Below, piece after piece: positions 19,960 to 62,661 of a stretch of 64,000 nt of DNA (the stretch's first letter is position 1; each line of letters starts with the position of its first letter). Source of the stretch: a virus. A model generated the notes under the pieces. That model had not been told where the DNA came from. It worked only from the letters and a program-made list of their open reading frames with translations, and searched no databases. The stretch covers positions 38,938 to 102,937 of the IMG/VR virus record IMGVR_UViG_3300005264_000064; one strand, written 5' to 3'. A program made the translations under genes and the position numbers.

Positions 19960-20186
19960 ATGTAATTAAATGGATAGTACACGGTACTGAAAAATTTCTG
20001 AAGGAATTGGTCTCCAGGTGTTAACATGTGCTGCCCATAGTGGTGTCCAAACAATTTAGAATAAATTGTTCGGGGAGCCACGGTTGGGCAGCACATGTTA
20101 GTGAATAGCGTTGTGTTACATAACCGATGTAGGCTACTACACTATCCGGTGTGCTTATTCTACCGATACTACCCATTTAATTACAT
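19960..20186 (-). ncRNA. retron-like msr-msd ncRNA (copy A)
   Basis: About 26-nt terminal IR (19960-19986/20161-20186), G20160 opposite G19987, motif GTAGTAGCCTACATCGGTTATGTAAC, perfect 16-bp msd stem 20022-20037/20085-20100. Confidence 0.85.
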
Positions 20187-20397
20187 TACTGCTACCAGAA
20201 ACCTACACGTACGAGACTAGCTCTATGCTAGACATGTGTTGAACTGCATTGAACCTGAGAGATCTCTCGTAGAGTAGATTCTGGGTTCATTCAGTTCAAC
20301 ACATGTGGTCATAAGCAGTTTATAGATAGCCGATGGAGGCTACTCCACTTACGTGTGTGTTGTTTATTTCTACGTGTAGGCTTGTGGTAGCAGTAAT
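20185..20397 (-). ncRNA. retron-like msr-msd ncRNA (copy B)
   Basis: 27-nt terminal IR (20185-20211/20371-20397), G20370 opposite G20212, motif GGAGTAGCCTCCATCGGCTAT, perfect 15-bp msd stem 20232-20246/20292-20306. Confidence 0.85.
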
Positions 20398-20534: not shown

Positions 20535-21278
20535 TTATCTGAGAGCTCTTGGTAGTAAGAGTCTTGACGAGGTGACTAAACCTCCGAGTGATGGACCATT
20601 TCTTTGGTGTCTGGCACATCTGATTTTCTTACGTATTTTTCTGGTAGGTGAAATACCTTCTGATCCTACCATGACTCCTAGAATACGACGGTTGCCGAAT
20701 TTGGCGTGATGTATACGGGTTTTAGCCGGGTTGATGGTAAGTCCGTAGTCTGACATGACCTCGGTGACTATTGCTATTGCTTCGTTGAGTTTTGTATATG
20801 ACGAAGGCGGAAAAGATAGTTGGATATCATCGGCGTATACCGTAAGTTTGTAGTCTGTATAGTATATATCGAATATGTCGCAGATTTCTTTTACCGGTGT
20901 AAGTAGATATATGTTTGCAAGCATAGGAGAGGTTGCAAAACCTTGTGCAAGAGTACCATCCGTGTGGGAAAAATGCTCAGGGTTTTCTAGAGGTACGTTA
21001 ATGGCATCTATTTTGATTGTGTCGAAACAATTAGATATGTCGAGGCCGATAGTATGGGCGTAGCCTATGTGCTGGATAGCTGCTGTTACACAGTTCCTGT
21101 CTTTGATGAATCCATGGAAAATTTTGTTGTCTCCGAAAAGTTGCGTTTCTCTTGAGTTAAATAGTGCTGACAACGTTGGTAATATGTTACGCTGTGTAGC
21201 TAGCAGATCTGCGTCAGGTGCACATATTCTACGATGTTTGCCGTTCTTTTTCTTTATAGTAAATTCACGGTATGTCAT
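20535..21278 (-). CDS. retron-type reverse transcriptase (minimal, 247 aa)
   Basis: IKKKNGKHRRICAP, HGF..DRNCVTAAIQH (region X-like), LDISNCFDTI, LAQGFATSPMLANI, YADD, INPAKTR, RRILG (region Y-like). Confidence 0.92.
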   Translation of the reverse strand: MTYREFTIKKKNGKHRRICAPDADLLATQRNILPTLSALFNSRETQLFGDNKIFHGFIKDRNCVTAAIQHIGYAHTIGLDISNCFDTIKIDAINVPLENPEHFSHTDGTLAQGFATSPMLANIYLLTPVKEICDIFDIYYTDYKLTVYADDIQLSFPPSSYTKLNEAIAIVTEVMSDYGLTINPAKTRIHHAKFGNRRILGVMVGSEGISPTRKIRKKIRCARHQRNGPSLGGLVTSSRLLLPRALR

Positions 21279-21287
21279 GTATGTCCT

Positions 21288-22523
21288 TTATTCGGGGTAT
21301 GCTTCTTCGTGGTATTTCGCTAGTTGTTCGTCTGTGAGATTAACAAGGATAGCTTTATCTACACCTATTGCGAGTAGCTCTTCTTGCATCACAATCTTGT
21401 CATACTCACGTACTGCTAGCTCGTCGTTGATTTCTTCGTAGCCTTCTAATATTGTTGTAACTAAATCTTTGCGTGAATAGATACTGTAATCGGTATAGTC
21501 CAGGTTAAAGAAGTCGTCTATCGTATGTGCCGCGGCATATAATTTTTCTAAAGGTAGTTGCTCTAGCTCAGAGAGTTCATACATCTTTGGCACATCTGGT
21601 CGTTTTACACTCATTCCTGGTAGTTGTGGAGTTTTAAGCCAGCTGCCTGCGGAAGTATAACGGAACGTAGACGGTGATATTGCCTTCTTTGTTACGTGCT
21701 TAGGGTTAATTAAGAGAAGCGGTAATAGAGTAGTTTGTAGGATGGAAACCAAGGCTGTGTTATGGGTTTCCAATAAGGCCGAATTCTTAGCTCTAATTTC
21801 GTAGGGTGTATCTTTGCATTGTCCTAGTAACCTTTCTACTGTACTCAGTTGTATGGGTACTCCCAGTGCTATAGAGTGACAGCGTGCTTCTGTATACGTT
21901 GTAGTAGACTCTGTTGAGTTTACGATGCGATACTCTGTGTGCGCTAAGTTGCACTGCCCATTGTCGATAGCCATAATTGATGCAAAATTCGGTGTTAGGT
22001 TACCGGATGTTAATGGGTATACTATACCTGGCTCAGTGATCGTACGGTCTAGATCTGTACCAGAGAATGATTGTCGCGCAGAGCCTCCAGGATGTCTGTG
22101 GATACTGTTGACTGTTGATGTTACAGGTGTGAATTTTACGTTGAACAGATCTTCTAGTTGCTGCTGGAGGGATGTACCCAATAGCTTAGTTACCTGAGTA
22201 GTGTGTACTGGTCTTATTTTCTCTGATGTGGCTTTGACGTCTTTTAATTCGAAGTCGATGTGTGCACTAGTTACCTGTTGTGGGTAATTGAAGAATACTG
22301 TCGGTACTGCGACGTCGAGTATTGAGTCGTCGGCTGCTATGTGCCTGAAGACTAGAGCGTAATAGTGCACTTGGAATTCGTTGGAAATTGCTGCAGGGCC
22401 TGACCGTGTGTAGATTTCCTGTAGGGTTGCTTGGTTTAAGAGTAGAACTCCTTGATGACGTGATGACTCGTAAGTCTGGAAGGTCTTCTTAGTCTTCTGT
22501 TGTGGTGGTATTATTGGCTTCAT
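21288..22523 (-). CDS. JAB/MPN-domain metallopeptidase (deubiquitinase-like)
   Basis: N-terminal NEFQ glutamate and SIHRHPGG....FSGTD (HxH-x-S-x2-D). Confidence 0.7.
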   Translation of the reverse strand: MKPIIPPQQKTKKTFQTYESSRHQGVLLLNQATLQEIYTRSGPAAISNEFQVHYYALVFRHIAADDSILDVAVPTVFFNYPQQVTSAHIDFELKDVKATSEKIRPVHTTQVTKLLGTSLQQQLEDLFNVKFTPVTSTVNSIHRHPGGSARQSFSGTDLDRTITEPGIVYPLTSGNLTPNFASIMAIDNGQCNLAHTEYRIVNSTESTTTYTEARCHSIALGVPIQLSTVERLLGQCKDTPYEIRAKNSALLETHNTALVSILQTTLLPLLLINPKHVTKKAISPSTFRYTSAGSWLKTPQLPGMSVKRPDVPKMYELSELEQLPLEKLYAAAHTIDDFFNLDYTDYSIYSRKDLVTTILEGYEEINDELAVREYDKIVMQEELLAIGVDKAILVNLTDEQLAKYHEEAYPE

Positions 22524-24102
22524 CGAATTCCTTTATGACATCCTGTAGTGGACGTAAGTATTTAGTTGTCAGTTTAGCGATCAGCTCAGCGCGGGCTACT
22601 TGTGCCATGCGGTAATTTTTAAAGAAGGGGTCTTTTAGAGTACTGAAGTTATCACAGGCAACTACTTTAAAGTAACCAGAACCGACGTATATTGTAGTAA
22701 TATCCGTTGAGGCCATGTTATCTTTAAACAATTGTTCAAAACGTCTTTCTGAGATTAGTGCGGGGACCTCCAGTTCTATGACATAGTGTTCGTCTTCATC
22801 TGTGTACTTTAAGCTTATTTCTTGCTGAGTGTTTGGTTGTAGCTCCAGGTAAGCGTGTATCTCTTTGTGGTAGTATGCTGCTTGTAGTGTTGTGCAGTCT
22901 TGTAACTTTTTAAGTTGGATAATAGCTGCGGCAGGACTGTTGTTCTTGAAAACAGCTATGTGCTCGGCTGGAAAAACTACTGGAGGAGTGGGTTCTTTTA
23001 CTATCGGTGTGTAGTCTTCTATGTAACCTGCTTTGTGGTAAAGGAACATCGAGGTATCAATGCATTGGTCAGCGTATAGAAGAGCTCCTGGTCGTATCAG
23101 TGTACGGTTTAGTGGTGAACCTAAGTATGAGTGATTGAGCGTTGAGAGTCCTTCAAGTGTTTGCTTCGATTGGCTGCCTGTACAGACGTTATTGAAGATT
23201 ATGCGATTGTCGTCTGCTTGGATAGTTGAATATGATATATTTGCTGCTAGAAACGGGGTTATCTGGCAACACTCGCCGTTAGCGCCTGGAGTTAGACGGA
23301 GTATTGATGTTCCGTAATAGGGAGCAATGTTTCCTCTTGTTAGTAATTGGTGAGGAAGAGTGTAGTGTACTGCGGCTGGGTCGTAATATGAGTTGTAGTT
23401 CTCAGGTATGTCGACTGCTGGCACTGTCTTGACTACTGTTACTGATGTGCTATCTTTACTTGGTATTACATCTGTAATTTTAGAAGTGTCTAGTATAACT
23501 TCTGTGTTTTTCTTAGAAAGACGTAGTAAGTTGGTAACAGCTGTTGATACCTCGGCTACGGTAGTATTGTAGGACTTATACGTCTTATCCATTGCTTTTC
23601 TGTTAGGGTAGAAATAAACTAGGACTTTAAACTTTATGTTTGAATACGTAGATGTAGTTAAAATAGCAGACGCTACCAGTGGGTGGAGTGGGTTAATCAT
23701 AAGTGCTTTACTCTTTACACCCCGCAGTACTACACCGTAGAAGTTATTGCCGGCCTTTTTTATTAGTGTATTTATTATAGGTATTGCTTCTTTGATGGTG
23801 TATTCACCATCGAGGGTTAAAATACTTTTTGTGATACTTGTGAAGAACGCTGTACCGTTTGATTGTTCTGGATTGAAGTCTGTACCTAGTCGGCCGCGAC
23901 TGACTGCTAAGCGCTTATAGACGTTTGTGTTTGTGTATATCGGAGTGATGGGTACACCCTTCTTATAGAACATCAGGGGCTCTTGGTTGCTGGGTTGTGC
24001 GCTGAAGGTAGGTACGGCGACTGCTTTTACAAACTCCTTGAACTCGGCTTTGTGCAGGCGTTGTATGAAAGTATCGCTAGTTCCGGTTATTTGATTATAC
24101 AT
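22489..24102 (-). CDS. putative prokaryotic E2-like protein
   Basis: TPFLAANI...NNVCTG resembles the E2 PxxN...VCxG active site; lies between E1 and JAB genes; start MYNQ with an AAGGA SD. Confidence 0.5.
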   Translation of the reverse strand: MYNQITGTSDTFIQRLHKAEFKEFVKAVAVPTFSAQPSNQEPLMFYKKGVPITPIYTNTNVYKRLAVSRGRLGTDFNPEQSNGTAFFTSITKSILTLDGEYTIKEAIPIINTLIKKAGNNFYGVVLRGVKSKALMINPLHPLVASAILTTSTYSNIKFKVLVYFYPNRKAMDKTYKSYNTTVAEVSTAVTNLLRLSKKNTEVILDTSKITDVIPSKDSTSVTVVKTVPAVDIPENYNSYYDPAAVHYTLPHQLLTRGNIAPYYGTSILRLTPGANGECCQITPFLAANISYSTIQADDNRIIFNNVCTGSQSKQTLEGLSTLNHSYLGSPLNRTLIRPGALLYADQCIDTSMFLYHKAGYIEDYTPIVKEPTPPVVFPAEHIAVFKNNSPAAAIIQLKKLQDCTTLQAAYYHKEIHAYLELQPNTQQEISLKYTDEDEHYVIELEVPALISERRFEQLFKDNMASTDITTIYVGSGYFKVVACDNFSTLKDPFFKNYRMAQVARAELIAKLTTKYLRPLQDVIKEFDEANNTTTTED

Positions 24103-24110
24103 GAGGATCC

Positions 24111-25724
24111 TTAAAAATTGTTTGCTTCGGTTGTTGTCATTACGAGATTGTTGTGGTCTAACTGCCAATGGTAGTTACGATCCGGACGGAGTTTTAGTGT
24201 GCCGTCGAATTCGAAATCCATGATGTGTTTATCTGCTTCATGTAAGTCTTGGTCTGAGGCTAATAATTTTAGTAGCTCGATCGTCATTTGTAATTGGTTC
24301 ATAAAGAATGATCCAAGTTGTATGATGCCGTATGTCTCAATTTGGAGATCCATATTTTGTTTAGGGTTAAGCCAAATTGAACATGACGTGTTGGCATGAG
24401 TTGCGCAGATTAAGGGACCAATTTTTGCAAGTTCGTCCCTGTACTCGATTCCGGGTGCGCCGTATAGTACTGTGTTATCTACTACGTGCTCTGTTGGGTG
24501 TCTCTTTACTATTTCTGAAGATATATATTTCTTTGCTGGTAAGTATTGTTCGTGTATTTCTAATGTTCTTGAACCGAGGTTTTTTAGTAGAGGGGTAATA
24601 AGCTGTATTTTGTTCAGGTTGCCTCTGGGTATGTTATAGGCAGAACTGTCTAGTGGGAAACGCAGCATGTTAGAATACTCTACAGATTCTTTTTCGAATA
24701 CTGCTACTTTTGAAAATATTTTATAGGTGCTTGTCAGCTTTGTTAATTCTGATAGCCAATAAGCTGTGTTCATTCCGGTACCCCCCGCCCCAAGAAATAC
24801 GAAGTTTAACTTCTTTCTTTTGACTTCTGTCAGTAGCTGTTTAATGTCCTTTAGGGTGTACCCGAGAACTCTAAGTAGCTGGTCTGTAGGGACTTTTTTT
24901 ACGTTTAGATACTCTGCTACAAATGGTGAGATAGCTACTGCCGTTGATGGTATATCGCTATTTTCTTGGATTTGTTTTTTGTCGCCGTTGTATCTAAACA
25001 TTAATCGAGGAAAGAAGCTGTCCATTACTACGTTGGAAAGTCCTGACTTTGGTCTGTCGAAGAATGCATAACGTACACGAATTTGCTCTGATAAATAGCT
25101 AGAAAATAGATGCATGTCGGCTGTTGTTATTTTGTTGTACTTGCCGTTAGAGTCTCTGTGCAGGTATGCTGGAGCTCGTAAAGTGCCGTAGACGGAGCGT
25201 CCTACATATTTATTTGTAGGGTTATGGTAAGCAACCATCGAAATATAGGTGCCATGCCCTGCTGTAAAAATTGCATGGGCACTATACTCTAGTAGTTCGA
25301 GGGTGCTTATAGGCTCAAGGTAATCGCTACTAATGCGTACCGGCTCCCGTCTGCAGGAAACTGACATACAATAATAAGTGTCTGGTTGGTCTTGGGGAAT
25401 AACTTTAGTCAACAGAGCATCAGGGTGGTTCAGGAAAACCTCATATCTTTCACTAGTCTGTAGCGTTGCCAGTACTACTGCGGGATTAGTGACTTTGTAC
25501 ATCTGCGGGACGTTACGCAGAAGTGTACGTTGGCCTTCTTCTGTTGTGAAATCTAAGGGTACTGGTCTTGCTACATCGTTGTCTTGTGTGTCTATTATTG
25601 TGTACTGTTCTGTGTCGTCGTGTGTCTCCACCTGCATCTTGACTGTGCCTGGTAACCAAGTTAGGATCTTCTTCAGTAGTGCTGTGTTTTCTTCGGTGAC
25701 TGGTGTTGATATATTATATGTCAT
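24111..25724 (-). CDS. ThiF/E1-like adenylating enzyme with long N-terminal extension
   Basis: FVFLGAGGTG Rossmann loop and FEKESVEYSNMLRF (DxDxVExSNLxR-like). Confidence 0.7.
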   Translation of the reverse strand: MTYNISTPVTEENTALLKKILTWLPGTVKMQVETHDDTEQYTIIDTQDNDVARPVPLDFTTEEGQRTLLRNVPQMYKVTNPAVVLATLQTSERYEVFLNHPDALLTKVIPQDQPDTYYCMSVSCRREPVRISSDYLEPISTLELLEYSAHAIFTAGHGTYISMVAYHNPTNKYVGRSVYGTLRAPAYLHRDSNGKYNKITTADMHLFSSYLSEQIRVRYAFFDRPKSGLSNVVMDSFFPRLMFRYNGDKKQIQENSDIPSTAVAISPFVAEYLNVKKVPTDQLLRVLGYTLKDIKQLLTEVKRKKLNFVFLGAGGTGMNTAYWLSELTKLTSTYKIFSKVAVFEKESVEYSNMLRFPLDSSAYNIPRGNLNKIQLITPLLKNLGSRTLEIHEQYLPAKKYISSEIVKRHPTEHVVDNTVLYGAPGIEYRDELAKIGPLICATHANTSCSIWLNPKQNMDLQIETYGIIQLGSFFMNQLQMTIELLKLLASDQDLHEADKHIMDFEFDGTLKLRPDRNYHWQLDHNNLVMTTTEANNF

Positions 25725-25775: not shown

Positions 25776-26663
25776 TTAGAGGAGTTTATTAATAAGTTCT
25801 TCGCGTAGTGCGGTATACTCATCGTCTGTGAAATTCCTGGTGTGTTCGAGGTTGTGGTCACGTATGTACTTGTCATAGAAGTAGGCGCACTCTTTAGCCG
25901 AATCCGCAGTGTGGATTTGAACCTCTATACCCCTTACCTTAACACGTGCTCTGTACGTAGTTTTATCGTGTGATGTAAAGCTTACACCGCGGTAACCTGA
26001 CGTGTTGCTGCTGCGTAAAAGCCTGGTGTTTCTTTGTTGTATGGTTTGTGCAACCCATCGACAGTTGTCTGGGGAGTACCCTTTACTGTTATTAATTCGG
26101 TCTATTGTTAAGTTACTTGCGTAGCCGTTGGCGAGAGACCACTCAAAAAATTTTCTGCGGTCTTGTGCCCATTCATCACATACTTTAATATTAGTAGTTG
26201 TGTAATAGTCATTACCTTTTCGATACTCCCCTGTTCTATTGAGCATATTATTGAAAATATGGTATAATCGATGCTTATTTGTAATACCTAAGTCTTTATA
26301 CTTCTGTGTTTTATTTCCTCGTATACTATCTGTGCATGCTTTACACCCGTAGCGTGTGAATAGGTAGGGTCTATATTGTACTATTGACTTACTACCGCAG
26401 TGTTTGCAGAGCACTTCGCATGTCTTATGTCCATCAACAAATTTTGTTATGTAGAGGCCGTTATCCTTACTGTTGTGTGCGGCTACGTAATCTACTACCT
26501 TTTGTTGCCTAGCTTTCGCTAATTCTTTATTGATGCAAGTAAAGCATGGTTTATGCTGTGCTCGTTTTGCTGTGAAATAGCCAGTTGTCTGTGTTTGACC
26601 ACAGACATGGCAGGTAACCTCTGCTTTTGATTTATCGTCAGTGTGTCTGATGATTGTTTTCAT
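25776..26663 (-). CDS. HNH homing endonuclease with AP2-like domain
   Basis: IKVCDEW, LTIDRINNSKGYSPDNCRW, NTSGYRGVS; own -10 TATAAT at 26696-26691. Confidence 0.85.
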   Translation of the reverse strand: MKTIIRHTDDKSKAEVTCHVCGQTQTTGYFTAKRAQHKPCFTCINKELAKARQQKVVDYVAAHNSKDNGLYITKFVDGHKTCEVLCKHCGSKSIVQYRPYLFTRYGCKACTDSIRGNKTQKYKDLGITNKHRLYHIFNNMLNRTGEYRKGNDYYTTTNIKVCDEWAQDRRKFFEWSLANGYASNLTIDRINNSKGYSPDNCRWVAQTIQQRNTRLLRSSNTSGYRGVSFTSHDKTTYRARVKVRGIEVQIHTADSAKECAYFYDKYIRDHNLEHTRNFTDDEYTALREELINKLL

Positions 26664-26719: not shown

Positions 26720-26860
26720 TTAATTAGGGTGTACACCCGATTTTGATTTCGCTTCACTAACTCCGCCTTCTACAGACGTAATAGTTATTTGCTCTTCCTC
26801 ATTCTCTGCCATTTCTTCGATTAGGGCGTCTAAGTCGAATTCTTCTGTATTGTCAGCCAT
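26720..26860 (-). CDS. small acidic protein (46 aa)
   Basis: MADNTEEFDLDALIEEMAENEEEQITITSVEGGVSEAKSKSGVHPN with an AAGGAG SD. Confidence 0.6.
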   Translation of the reverse strand: MADNTEEFDLDALIEEMAENEEEQITITSVEGGVSEAKSKSGVHPN

Positions 26861-26861
26861 T

Positions 26862-27134
26862 TTACTCTCCTTTTTCTTCATCAAGCATTGCGCCTGATAC
26901 TGGTAAGTCGATACTGATTTCACCGCTGAATTTGTAAACTTCAATCTTTGCTTCTGGGCATCTTAGTACGATTGCCTTTGCTGCTTTGATTAAGTCTTTC
27001 TTTGTTGCTGGTCTGTTCTGTAGAACTGAACCGTTTACTACTAAGATGAATTTAGGTGTTGTTTTCTTCTTAGTTTTCTTTGGTGCAAGCATTTCTTGTA
27101 GTGCTGCAGCTACTTCGCTCTTGATGTTACTCAT
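26862..27134 (-). CDS. hypothetical protein
   Basis: ORF with AAGGAG SD. Confidence 0.6.
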   Translation of the reverse strand: MSNIKSEVAAALQEMLAPKKTKKKTTPKFILVVNGSVLQNRPATKKDLIKAAKAIVLRCPEAKIEVYKFSGEISIDLPVSGAMLDEEKGE

Positions 27135-37173: not shown

Positions 37174-39459
37174 TTAGAATATGATCTTAGCGAGTTGCTC
37201 GCCATTTGTTAGAACGTTGAGTGTCCCGTTGTTGTCTGCTGAGATGACAGTGTCAGCTGACATTTTGTTCGTAGTAATTTGTGACTTCTTGATTGACTTA
37301 CGAAGTACGTAGTCTACTGACAGACGTTGTGGTAAGTTAGCCAGTAAATGCTTGGTGTTATCAAATGAGGATATGACAGTGTTATGAAGAGAACTATTAT
37401 CTGAGATAGGTTTAGTAATAAATTTACACTTACCAGCCTTAACGTCGATGTATGAACCTACATAAGCCTTTGCTGGGTCATTTAGTTTGATAGCGTATGC
37501 TTGGCGTGCTAAGTCAATTGTTAGACTATTACTTGCCATGACTCTTTTTGATCTTGGAATGAAGTCTATGAACAAATGTGTATCGTATTTGTCTAAAGTT
37601 GCGCCACTGTACATTGTTAATGAGTTGATGATAGTATCTATCTCTGCTGATTGTGCCAGCTTGTAGTCTATGTCGATGAACTCTGCGGAGTATGTCGTAG
37701 TTGAGCATGACGTGATGTCTCCTGAGGATACTGCGAGTAGTTGTGGTTTCCCGGTGGCCTTGTTCCCTACCTGTAGCTGCGGTGCGCCGTAGTAGCATTG
37801 ATACACTTGTTCACCACGTAGGAGGGATGTGTTGAGGTCGATGTCACACGAGCCGTTTCCAGCGTCTCTCCATACTACACCTAGACGTATGAAATCTGTG
37901 TCTACTGGGATAGTTATTGATGAACCTGGAGGTAGGAAATTGCCTGAGACTTGATTATCTGTAGACTCTGCTCCTGAGTATTGAATAGCGATATCTGCTA
38001 GCGATGGATCGATGTAGACTTTACCAAGAGATTTGTTCTGTTCTTTCTTGACTGACTTAATGTAGCTCTTTAAGGTCTTAAGGGCTGACTTAGCCATCGT
38101 TGTGTCAATAGCTGGTATTGGTGTTGTGTAGCGAACTGTGACACCTTGTACCTCACGAGTTGTAATTGGTGATTGATGTACTGGGTTCTTAATTTCTTCG
38201 ATTAACTGCCAAGCTGTTTTAATAGCTGGTGTTGTCTTTGTTAGAAAATCTGAAAAATCGTACTTTAAGAATGCAGTAATATCAGATTTAGCATACTTAG
38301 TTTTGTCTAACAGCAAATCAGTTGTATTTGGAGTTGTCTTACTTGCCAGTGGAGTACCCTTTGGGTATTTCAACAAGTTAACAAGGTTACGTAGTACAAG
38401 TCCTGGACGTTCCTGCAGTATTTCAACAGCTTTAGCGAAGTCTCCTGCTTGCATTGCTGCTGAGTAGCGGCTGTTGAATGTCCAACTACGGTCATTGCTA
38501 TATAGTTTGTCAGTGAGTACTTTGAGGTTCGGGTACCTCTTTAGTTCACGAGAAGCTGATGTCCAGTGGCAATGATGTAGGCAACGTTTCCAAAATTGCT
38601 CGTTTGTTAGGAGTTGTTCTACGATGTAGTCAGTATTCTCACAGTCGTTGAAATACTGAAGTATCACTTTCTTCATTCTCGTTGGTAAGTGGAATTTGAA
38701 GGATTTTAACATACTATTAGTTATTTGTCCTGAATAGTCAATTGCATTATCACCTTGTTGGAAGTTAGTGAGAATGAGCCTCATTAACATTGTTGGTGAC
38801 TTAATATGAGGTGTATTACCTAAGTTGTGCATAAGGTTCATGTAGAATGCTTCAGTTGCCTGTACCTTAAAATCTGTTGATGCAAGTTTAATGATGTGCT
38901 CTGGAGCTGCCTTTAGCAACTGCTTTTGTTGAAGGCGGAGAGGTACTGGAGATGACAAGATTGATTGTAGGTACACAACAGCATCTGCTGTATTTAGCAA
39001 TGTAACTTCCTTAGTAGTCGATGGTAGTTTTACGGCTGTTGTAAAATCATAGTCATTTGCATAGTTTGCCAATACTTTTACAGCAGTTTCTGGGAAATTT
39101 GCCGCGTAAAGGTCTTGCCATCCATAAGTAACAGCGTATTGTGCTAAGATTACTGCTGTCTCTTCAAGAGTATACGTTTCTAACTTAGTAGTGCTTGCAA
39201 ACGAATCTCTGAGCTTATACGCACCAACTTGTGCAGAATTTGCAACAGTTGGTATTTGCTCTAGAGCTATAGCTAGGAAATCTCTGTTTGCTGAAAACAA
39301 TATTTCTGGATTTGTTAGATGCAGGTTTAACTTTGACAGTTTTAGTAAAACTGCAGTAATAAGCTCTCTAGTAGTGTAGTCTGACTGGGTTGGCTTGCTG
39401 TCGATATAAATGTTGCTGGTAGTTCCAAACAGTAATGTTTGAAATTGTGTTGCTTTCAT
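37174..39459 (-). CDS. TROVE/ROT-like helical domain fused to a TerD-like C-terminal domain
   Basis: RPGLVLRNLVNLL (compare Ro60 MPxxALLRNL); C-terminal W...DIDL...SSGDITS...AEFIDID TerD-like motif. Confidence 0.6.
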   Translation of the reverse strand: MKATQFQTLLFGTTSNIYIDSKPTQSDYTTRELITAVLLKLSKLNLHLTNPEILFSANRDFLAIALEQIPTVANSAQVGAYKLRDSFASTTKLETYTLEETAVILAQYAVTYGWQDLYAANFPETAVKVLANYANDYDFTTAVKLPSTTKEVTLLNTADAVVYLQSILSSPVPLRLQQKQLLKAAPEHIIKLASTDFKVQATEAFYMNLMHNLGNTPHIKSPTMLMRLILTNFQQGDNAIDYSGQITNSMLKSFKFHLPTRMKKVILQYFNDCENTDYIVEQLLTNEQFWKRCLHHCHWTSASRELKRYPNLKVLTDKLYSNDRSWTFNSRYSAAMQAGDFAKAVEILQERPGLVLRNLVNLLKYPKGTPLASKTTPNTTDLLLDKTKYAKSDITAFLKYDFSDFLTKTTPAIKTAWQLIEEIKNPVHQSPITTREVQGVTVRYTTPIPAIDTTMAKSALKTLKSYIKSVKKEQNKSLGKVYIDPSLADIAIQYSGAESTDNQVSGNFLPPGSSITIPVDTDFIRLGVVWRDAGNGSCDIDLNTSLLRGEQVYQCYYGAPQLQVGNKATGKPQLLAVSSGDITSCSTTTYSAEFIDIDYKLAQSAEIDTIINSLTMYSGATLDKYDTHLFIDFIPRSKRVMASNSLTIDLARQAYAIKLNDPAKAYVGSYIDVKAGKCKFITKPISDNSSLHNTVISSFDNTKHLLANLPQRLSVDYVLRKSIKKSQITTNKMSADTVISADNNGTLNVLTNGEQLAKIIF

Positions 39460-62187: not shown

Positions 62188-62264
<77 letters not shown>

Positions 62265-62269
62265 AATGT

Positions 62270-62344
62270 ACGGATGTACTTTAGTGGTAAAAGGCCAGTC
62301 TGTTAAGCTGGAAGCCGTTGGTTCGAATCCAACCGTCCGTGCCA
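62270..62344 (+). tRNA. tRNA-Asn(GTT)
   Basis: CCAGT-CTGTTAA-GCTGG; canonical T-loop; CCA. Confidence 0.9.
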
Positions 62345-62346
62345 TT

Positions 62347-62421
62347 CGTAAGGTAACTCAGGAGTAGAGTGCTAACCTGAAAAGTTAGAGGCCGTTGGTG
62401 CGAGTCCAACTCTTACGACCA
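62347..62421 (+). tRNA. tRNA-Phe(GAA)
   Basis: CTAAC-CTGAAAA-GTTAG; T-loop TGCGAGT; CCA. Confidence 0.85.
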
Positions 62422-62424
62422 TAT

Positions 62425-62498
62425 ATGGATATAGTGAAGTGACATAACACCTGTTTTGGGAACAGGAGTCGGAAATTTGATTCTTCCTATCCGTACCA
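62425..62498 (+). tRNA. tRNA-Pro(TGG)
   Basis: CCTGT-TTTGGGA-ACAGG; T-loop TTTGATT; CCA. Confidence 0.8.
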
Positions 62499-62501
62499 TA
62501 C

Positions 62502-62575
62502 TGAGGGATCGTATAATAGTAGTACACTGCACTTTGACTGCAGGAACAAAGGAGCGTTACCTTTTCCCTCAACCA
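62502..62575 (+). tRNA. tRNA-Gln(TTG)
   Basis: CTGCA-CTTTGAC-TGCAG; T-loop AGCGTTA; CCA. Confidence 0.8.
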
Positions 62576-62585
62576 TCATGCATAT

Positions 62586-62661
62586 GGTGGCTGTAGTACA
62601 ATGGCTAGTACACTCGGCTGTGGCCCGAGGTATCTGAGTTCGATTCTCAGCAGCCACACCA
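62586..62661 (+). tRNA. tRNA-His(GTG)
   Basis: CTCGG-CTGTGGC-CCGAG; G-1 present; CCA. Confidence 0.9.

Follow-up and report, generated by a model that had tools for sequence, protein, structure and literature searches.

A putative ubiquitin-like peptide-conjugation operon in uncultured podophage-like genomes, with a retron-type reverse transcriptase as a frequent neighbour

Bacterial systems built from E1, E2 and JAB proteins, such as type II CBASS, Bil and Bub, are host defences against phages, and the locus described here raises the question of whether a phage may carry a conjugation cascade of its own. This locus lies in a DNA stretch of 64,000 nucleotides (nt), hereafter the window, which corresponds to positions 38,938 to 102,937 of the IMG/VR virus record IMGVR_UViG_3300005264_000064 (102,937 bp; CheckV completeness, 100%). 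An initial annotation of the window had pointed to three tightly packed genes with ThiF/E1, candidate E2 and JAB motifs, running into a retron-type reverse transcriptase (RT), and had proposed a phage protein-conjugation system that might be the effector or partner of the retron. With moderate confidence, we read this locus as a phage-encoded ubiquitin-like peptide-conjugation module made up of a short pro-peptide, an E1-like protein, a protein with an invariant cysteine (Cys protein) in the E2 position and a JAB candidate, and the system as a new phage variant of the E1/E2/JAB conjugation systems; the last three proteins are referred to as the triad.

The three open reading frames (ORFs), their motifs and the short distance to the RT gene were all found in the sequence as initially described, the ATG of the RT gene at 21278 being located 9 nt past the JAB stop codon (21288-21290). 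The sequences GAGGTG and VEYSNMLR correspond to residues 312-317 and 348-355 of the E1-like protein, PFLAANI and VCTG are present in the Cys protein, and HRHPGG and SGTD correspond to residues 142-147 and 154-157 of the JAB candidate; these motifs are not chance matches, since they fall on invariant columns of the respective family alignments (34, 94 and 37 sequences). The original coordinates omitted two upstream parts of the operon, namely the pro-peptide gene and a gene for a small accessory protein (c4). The operon core consists of four genes whose order is fixed (pro-peptide, E1, Cys protein, JAB); c4 lies upstream in many lineages.

Relatives of the operon were recovered from 14 viral-contig loci and 40 metagenome loci, representing 37 lineages at 90% nucleotide identity, and wherever a locus is long enough the order is E1, Cys protein, JAB, the genes abutting or overlapping. 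Single-sequence searches with the three proteins gave nothing significant in Pfam, PADLOC, PHROGs or PDB sequences, and profile searches against PDB sequences were likewise empty for the three families. No relative of the three proteins was identified by tblastn among 50,697 records of cultured phages, nor by two pattern scans, of limited sensitivity, of 185,579 prokaryote genomes, and no phage operon of this kind was found described in the literature searched.

The E1-like protein is the best supported member of the group. Its residues 1-200 are variable and poorly modelled, and approximately residues 210-537 constitute a conserved E1 domain; homologues were found only in metagenomes, where they form 59 clusters. 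The AlphaFold2 (AF2) model, built on the 34-sequence alignment, displays predicted local distance difference test (pLDDT) values mostly above 85 from residue 210 onwards. When this model was compared with the PDB by Foldseek, 115 matches were obtained at E≤0.001, led by MccB, ThiF, UBA7, Uba4 and PaaA, with a probability of 1.0, and the top matches listed were all E1-superfamily enzymes. The best match by VIA-align was Enterobacter cloacae Cap2 (7to3_A; Z 14.4, root-mean-square deviation 3.4, 187 aligned residues), followed by a bacterial E1-E2-Ubl complex (8tz0_B; Z 12.9) and then by UBA6, UBA7, UBA1 and the SUMO E1, among 235 chains at Z≥8 in all. At the sequence level, an hhalign comparison with Escherichia coli MoeB (E 0.0019) matched the G312-A-G-G-T-G loop and the E..E..E349-x-S351-N352-x-x-R355 segment with the same motifs of MoeB, and a value of E 0.025 was obtained for the E1 family against ThiF. 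Residues G312, G314, G315, S351, N352 and R355 are invariant in 34/34 E1 sequences, as are E349, K372 and R429. The Pfam family ThiF (PF00899) gave no match for the window protein and matched three of its 34 relatives, with a best E of 0.014. The ThiF/E1 identity suggested initially is supported by the Cap2-like fold match together with the GxGGxG and SNxxR signatures, and the first protein is thus best described as a predicted E1-like adenylating enzyme of the E1/ThiF-MoeB-Uba superfamily, supported by fold and signature motifs. The possibility that its N-terminal region represents a fused E2, as in Cap2, was rejected, as no conserved Cys is present there.

A newly recognised part of the operon is the small ORF upstream of the E1 gene. 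A homologous ORF of 38-54 amino acids (aa) was identified just upstream of the E1 gene in 43/43 loci, these being the loci with at least 260 nt of upstream sequence. A hidden Markov model (HMM) of the peptide found exactly one match per locus among 3,924 small ORFs, always directly upstream of the E1 gene. The full-length alignment of 29 unique peptides shows in each an amphipathic N-terminal helix, often AGxD(T/S), a Ser/Thr-rich stretch and a C-terminal K-S-G followed by 1-5 variable residues; the last residue may be Y, K, A, R, W, Q, S, C, I, E, L or N. The conserved internal Gly, located 1-5 residues from the end in these 29 peptides, lies further in in three others, and the HMM also matches loci outside the seed alignment, whose peptides have about 7-10 residues past the Gly-rich motif. 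The window pro-peptide follows the same plan: its N-terminal helix is acidic and amphipathic, its middle part is rich in Ser and Thr, and the conserved K-S-G42 precedes the tail VHPN; its gene starts 1 nt past the c4 stop codon and is preceded by an AAAGGAG ribosome-binding site. A conserved Gly with a disposable tail is what a JAB-trimmed, E1-activated modifier precursor would look like. There is a precedent in type II CBASS: the protein that Cap2 activates there lacks the ubiquitin fold, activation takes place at one conserved Gly or Ala at its C-terminus, and the JAB protein Cap3 cleaves at this end of the chain (PMC10097602). The proposal of a phage conjugation system has become more plausible, because the E1 gene is preceded in every locus by a conserved pro-peptide whose C-terminus combines a Gly with a tail; the E2 component is not established.

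In the accessory protein c4, an N-terminal helix is connected by a Lys-rich linker to a short core of the order strand-helix-strand-strand (...ILVVNG...). Most main-clade loci have the c4 gene immediately before the peptide gene (HMM E 1e-15 to 1e-35), often with overlapping stop and start codons, and several lineages lack it. No match to c4 was obtained in Pfam, and the only match in PHROGs was phrog_3710, of unknown function (E 6e-4). The Lys-rich, KKTKKK-like linker is kept in most relatives, and the short core with its ...VNG... segment is ThiS-like. We considered c4 as the modifier itself and rejected it, because conservation does not extend to the Gly at its C-terminus; it may be an acceptor or adaptor for the peptide.

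In the JAB candidate, a catalytic domain of approximately residues 1-240 is followed by a variable C-terminal region. H142, H144, P145, S154 and D157 are invariant in 37/37 sequences of the family and E49 is present in 35/37, the other two being gapped at that column, which gives a JAMM-type motif E...HxH-x9-SxxD. Furthermore, HRHPGG aligns to HSHPGG of lambda K over 10 columns (E 0.021), Prok-JAB (PF14464) was the second most recurrent Pfam family after Rho_N (4/37 relatives; best E 0.19, below threshold), and an Atlas feature search gave weak leads to Prok-JAB clusters (scores 0.81-0.82). The Pfam families Prok-JAB PF14464 and JAB PF01398 had no match to the window protein, the genome search being empty as well, and when shorter relatives were sought with the family profile, the matches were all members of the family itself, for the most part split N-terminal halves. 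The initial JAB assignment is supported at the level of the motif, with an invariant JAMM motif and weak Prok-JAB matches, below the family profile threshold, in its favour; the third protein is probably a JAB/JAMM-type metallopeptidase.

Two side observations concern this gene. The C-terminal tail of the JAB candidate (window positions 21288-21800, minus strand) resembles the Rho_N helix-extension-helix in 6/37 relatives (best E 0.002), a similarity that hints at nucleic-acid binding. Separately, at least five lineages (L001, L010, L011, L039 and L062) have the gene divided into two ORFs, with the break placed exactly behind HxHP. The split in L010 consists only of a stop codon followed by a ribosome-binding site and another ATG, and in L001 and L011 an ORF (109 and 184 aa, respectively) lies between the two halves, these two ORFs being unrelated to each other. 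A group I intron at the split site was rejected, given the lack of a match in Rfam and the plain stop, ribosome-binding site and ATG of L010.

The protein in the E2 position is the least certain component. Its start is probably the ATG at 24102 (M23 of the listed ORF), because residue 1 of the closest relative aligns with residue 23 of the query; this start leaves an 8-nt gap behind the E1 stop codon, and residues are numbered from it throughout (C307 is C329 of the longer ORF). The family comprises 215 representative clusters in metagenomes and has a conserved core at approximately residues 40-360, followed by a variable C-terminal region (376-537). The Cys and Asn highlighted by the initial annotation are invariant: C307 and N288, as well as N137 and S329, are present in 94/94 sequences, and H324 in 86/94. 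In the AF2 model, the core reaches a pLDDT above 90 and displays the secondary-structure order helix, four strands, Cys loop and helices. The motifs are ordered as PYYG, about 25 residues, NIS, about 19 residues and VCTG, an order that recalls PYxGG, HPNI and IC of UBC enzymes and that we regard as a lead. An E2-like role is thus suggested by the location between E1 and JAB, the invariant Cys, the secondary-structure order and the motif order.

Direct comparisons did not establish the E2 identity that had been proposed. The Foldseek search of the confident model against the PDB gave no match at E≤0.001, the best E2 being Ube2S (5bnb_A; E 0.45, TM 0.36 on the target), and in both VIA-align runs the matches (Z≤6.1) were mostly to the variable C-terminal domain, with the core barely covered. 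No HPN motif is present about 8-10 residues before the Cys; the invariant N288 (NIS) lies 19 residues before it, with no His-Pro. None of the 94 relatives matched the E2 Pfam families (UQ_con and the Prok-E2 families) at E≤1, no E2 match was found in PADLOC or PHROGs, an Atlas search with the core gave no usable match, and BFVD returned one uncharacterised family member and nothing else.

Integrating these findings, we propose the following order of events. The JAB metallopeptidase would remove the short variable tail (VHPN in the window), exposing Gly42 of the 46-aa peptide; the Cap2/Bil-like E1 would bind the trimmed peptide and adenylate its Gly carboxylate with ATP; and the acyl group would then be transferred to the invariant Cys of the downstream protein, acting in the E2 role, possibly by way of Cys448 of the E1-like protein. 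From this Cys, the peptide would pass to a target amine, which could belong to a host or a phage protein, and the JAB protein may also reverse the conjugation. A more specific version, which we regard as possible rather than probable, is a minimal phage tagging system in which a disordered peptide of about 45 aa, JAB-trimmed and activated by a Cap2-like E1, would be placed on host or phage proteins in the course of infection by a Cys enzyme of a new fold, with the RT perhaps taking part in about half of the lineages.

This cascade resembles type II CBASS in several respects: the E1 domain of Cap2 is the best structural match (7to3_A, Z 14.4), a JAB partner (Cap3) is present, and the substrate, rather than having a beta-grasp fold, is a chain that carries one conserved Gly at its C-terminus, where it is cut by JAB (PMC10097602). 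However, the modifier in the phage would be a free peptide of about 45 aa rather than an enzyme; Cap2 is an E2-E1 fusion, whereas the E2-position protein of the phage is separate (537 aa) and has no detectable E2 homology; and CBASS belongs to bacterial defence islands, whereas lytic-type phage genomes are involved here. In the complete phage record, no SMODS (CD-NTase) match at E≤10 and no PADLOC Cap matches were found, and without a CD-NTase the system does not qualify as CBASS. The set of E1, E2, deconjugating peptidase and modifier genes is shared with Bil (BilABCD) and Bub, and a bacterial E1-E2-Ubl complex (8tz0_B, Z 12.9) is the second-best match of the E1-like protein. In these systems the modifiers are beta-grasp Ubl proteins, whereas the candidate in the phage genomes is a short peptide of low complexity. 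Bub uses oxyester intermediates and a serine protease (PMC11601596). In operon 6d of Iyer et al., an E2-like protein without the classical His has a conserved His after the Cys (PMC1779556), and the phage protein similarly has H324 after C307.

Several observations weigh against this conjugation cascade. No significant Pfam match, and no JAB among PDB sequences by profile search, was obtained for the JAB candidate; an E2 fold of the Cys protein is not demonstrated; a beta-grasp fold would require a longer and more complex sequence than that of the peptide; and C448, which lies past the core strands and is the only well-conserved Cys of the E1-like protein, is present in 30/34 relatives and replaced by Ala or Val in the other four. 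In addition, an extended hhalign alignment, in a stretch of low confidence, places the near-invariant Y421 of the YGAP motif at D130 of MoeB, which, like D127 of ThiF, is the Mg-binding Asp; if this Tyr-for-Asp alignment holds, adenylation may be different or absent. Such a substitution would favour an interpretation with no conjugation chemistry, in which the E1-like protein is a non-catalytic scaffold lacking the Mg-binding Asp, the Cys protein and the JAB candidate are functionally unrelated (e.g., a protease, or structural or regulatory proteins), and the small ORF encodes a leader peptide or some unconnected small protein. It also draws on the fact that all three proteins stay below the curated family thresholds. 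Yet the invariant nucleotide-loop and Arg-finger residues argue for nucleotide binding, and the strict co-inheritance and order of the four genes, with a Gly kept near the end of 29 unique peptides, fit a shared pathway; we consider the absence of such chemistry very doubtful. An unlikely but credible alternative retains the chemistry and changes its product: the trimmed peptide, adenylated by E1, would be converted to a thiocarboxylate or serve as a small-molecule scaffold in nucleotide, DNA or metabolite modification within the replication module, with the Cys protein as a sulfur or acyl relay, in parallel to ThiS/MoaD, CysO-Mec+, QbsE-QbsD and the ribosomally synthesized and post-translationally modified peptide (RiPP) enzymes MccB and PaaA. 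ThiF/MoeB, MccB and PaaA share the adenylating Rossmann fold and the GxGGxG and SNxxR motifs, and MccB, ThiF and PaaA were among the first Foldseek matches. In CysO-Mec+ and QbsE-QbsD, activation takes place at the C-terminus of a small substrate, from which a JAB protein trims the tail after Gly, the combination of JAB, E1 and a small carrier with Gly plus tail being also a known sulfur-carrier layout (PMC1779556). The location of the operon between thyX and the primase gene, and a middle protein that is not detectably an E2, would fit this pathway as well. Nevertheless, the best VIA-align matches are conjugating E1s (Cap2, the E1-E2-Ubl complex, UBA6 and UBA7) and not ThiF/MoeB; sulfur-relay partners and a CD-NTase were looked for in the phage and none was found, with no ThiS, rhodanese or cysteine desulfurase detected; and the phage operon, in contrast to the carrier adenylases, always has an extra protein with an invariant Cys. 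MccB-type chemistry was rejected, as it needs a precursor ending in Asn, as in MccA, and the peptides conserve a Gly followed by a variable tail, with no conserved terminal Asn.

A further alternative, the one raised by the initial annotation, is that the triad works with the retron-type RT as its effector or partner, for instance by tagging the RT, the multicopy single-stranded DNA (msDNA) complex or their target. The RT itself is well supported (Pfam RVT_1, E 1.6e-20; PADLOC retron RT_III-A, E 4e-32), and downstream of its gene there are inverted repeats at 20185-20211/20371-20397 (27 nt, 93%) and 19960-19979/20167-20186 (20 nt, 95%), both with inner hairpins. These define two abutting noncoding RNA (ncRNA)-like units of approximately 215-225 nt, each closed by 20-27-nt inverted arms like a retron msr-msd, so that a retron-type RT and ncRNA-like units with inverted repeats are located directly after the operon. 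Twenty-four of the 37 lineages are informative on what follows JAB. Among these, the RT gene lies directly after JAB in nine, as it does in the window (at -85 to +22 nt), and 0.9-4.6 kb downstream in three, and no RT is present within at least 1.5 kb in the remaining 12. Seven of ten viral-contig loci with this RT family derive from triad-type phages, six of them located on triad-carrying records and the seventh (L022) being a fragment of the L020 type, and divergence is similar for the RT (40-52% identity) and the triad proteins (35-48%). Adjacency is thus frequent, but each element is also found alone: in whole-record searches in which positive controls worked, four records with 100% CheckV completeness (L004, L010, L011 and L012) carry the triad without RT, and one complete record (L024) carries the RT without triad. 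Moreover, triad and RT are separated by 4.6 kb and other genes in L001 and L002, and the triad resembles no known retron effector in PADLOC. In large part, the association can be explained by common descent, as the phages with both elements are related; the E1 tree is too poorly resolved to tell whether there is one RT clade or to count gains and losses. Since complete records hold the triad alone or the RT alone, the RT-triad association is real but facultative, and the RT with its ncRNAs represents a separate module, often directly downstream. The role of the triad as retron effector or partner is weakened by these findings and we regard it as rather unlikely, the RT being a frequent neighbour and not an obligate partner.

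As a separate observation on this RT family, two triad-less phages carry two nearby RT genes each (L023:2593-7741 and L024:4186-7800), in both cases a long form (806 and 582 aa, respectively) and a short form (360 and 270 aa), with the conserved small genes c23 and c24 beside and between them.

If the peptide-conjugation module is correct, a diverged form of the logic behind the bacterial E1/E2/JAB defences would be encoded by viruses as well, namely by uncultured podophage-like genomes that represent at least 37 lineages and several environments. It would constitute the first phage-encoded conjugation cascade found in the literature searched and a previously unrecognised viral post-translational modification, would indicate that a short unstructured peptide can be the modifier of such a cascade, and would make the invariant-Cys protein, which has no recognisable fold, a candidate new class of transfer enzyme. 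Because the processed peptide would end in K-S-G, a tagged Lys would carry a Ser-Gly remnant (+144.05 Da) after trypsin digestion, so that targets could be found by mass spectrometry.

Regarding the genomic setting, the source phage is a marine podophage, with a primase of the N4 gp43 type that is 43% identical to the primase of Alteromonas phage vB_AmaP_AD45-P1. Within the early/replication region, the operon occupies a site between thyX and the N4-type primase gene (Table 1); in the Alteromonas phage, this interval contains ligase, thioredoxin and other genes, and the triad is absent. Given this location and a nearest cultured relative without the triad, the operon looks like an accessory cassette of the early/replication region, for host takeover or counter-defence.

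Table 1. Coordinates of the operon, its neighbours and the split JAB genes (window positions, unless a lineage is given).
Feature	Position	Strand	Description
c4 gene	26862-27134	minus	90 aa; small accessory protein
Pro-peptide gene	26720-26860	minus	46 aa; putative modifier
HNH homing endonuclease gene	25776-26663	minus	phrog_374, E 1.7e-34
E1-like gene	24111-25724	minus	537 aa
Cys-protein ORF as listed	22489-24168	minus	559 aa; TTG start
Cys-protein gene, likely extent	22489-24102	minus	537 aa; ATG start at 24102
JAB candidate gene	21288-22523	minus	411 aa
RT gene	20535-21278	minus	247 aa; retron-type, short
Two tandem ncRNA-like units	19960-20397	minus	inverted repeats, downstream of RT
Six-tRNA-gene cluster	62188-62658	plus	
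Split JAB genes	L001:10032-11748; L010:10394-11580; L011:10213-11934		

In the window, the pro-peptide and E1 genes are separated by an inserted, free-standing gene for an HNH homing endonuclease. This endonuclease clusters with no ORF of L001-L014 and is not part of the system. Where the gap could be read in other loci, the peptide gene ends approximately 40-100 nt before the E1 gene, as in L028, where the two positions are 5686 and 5740 (54 nt).

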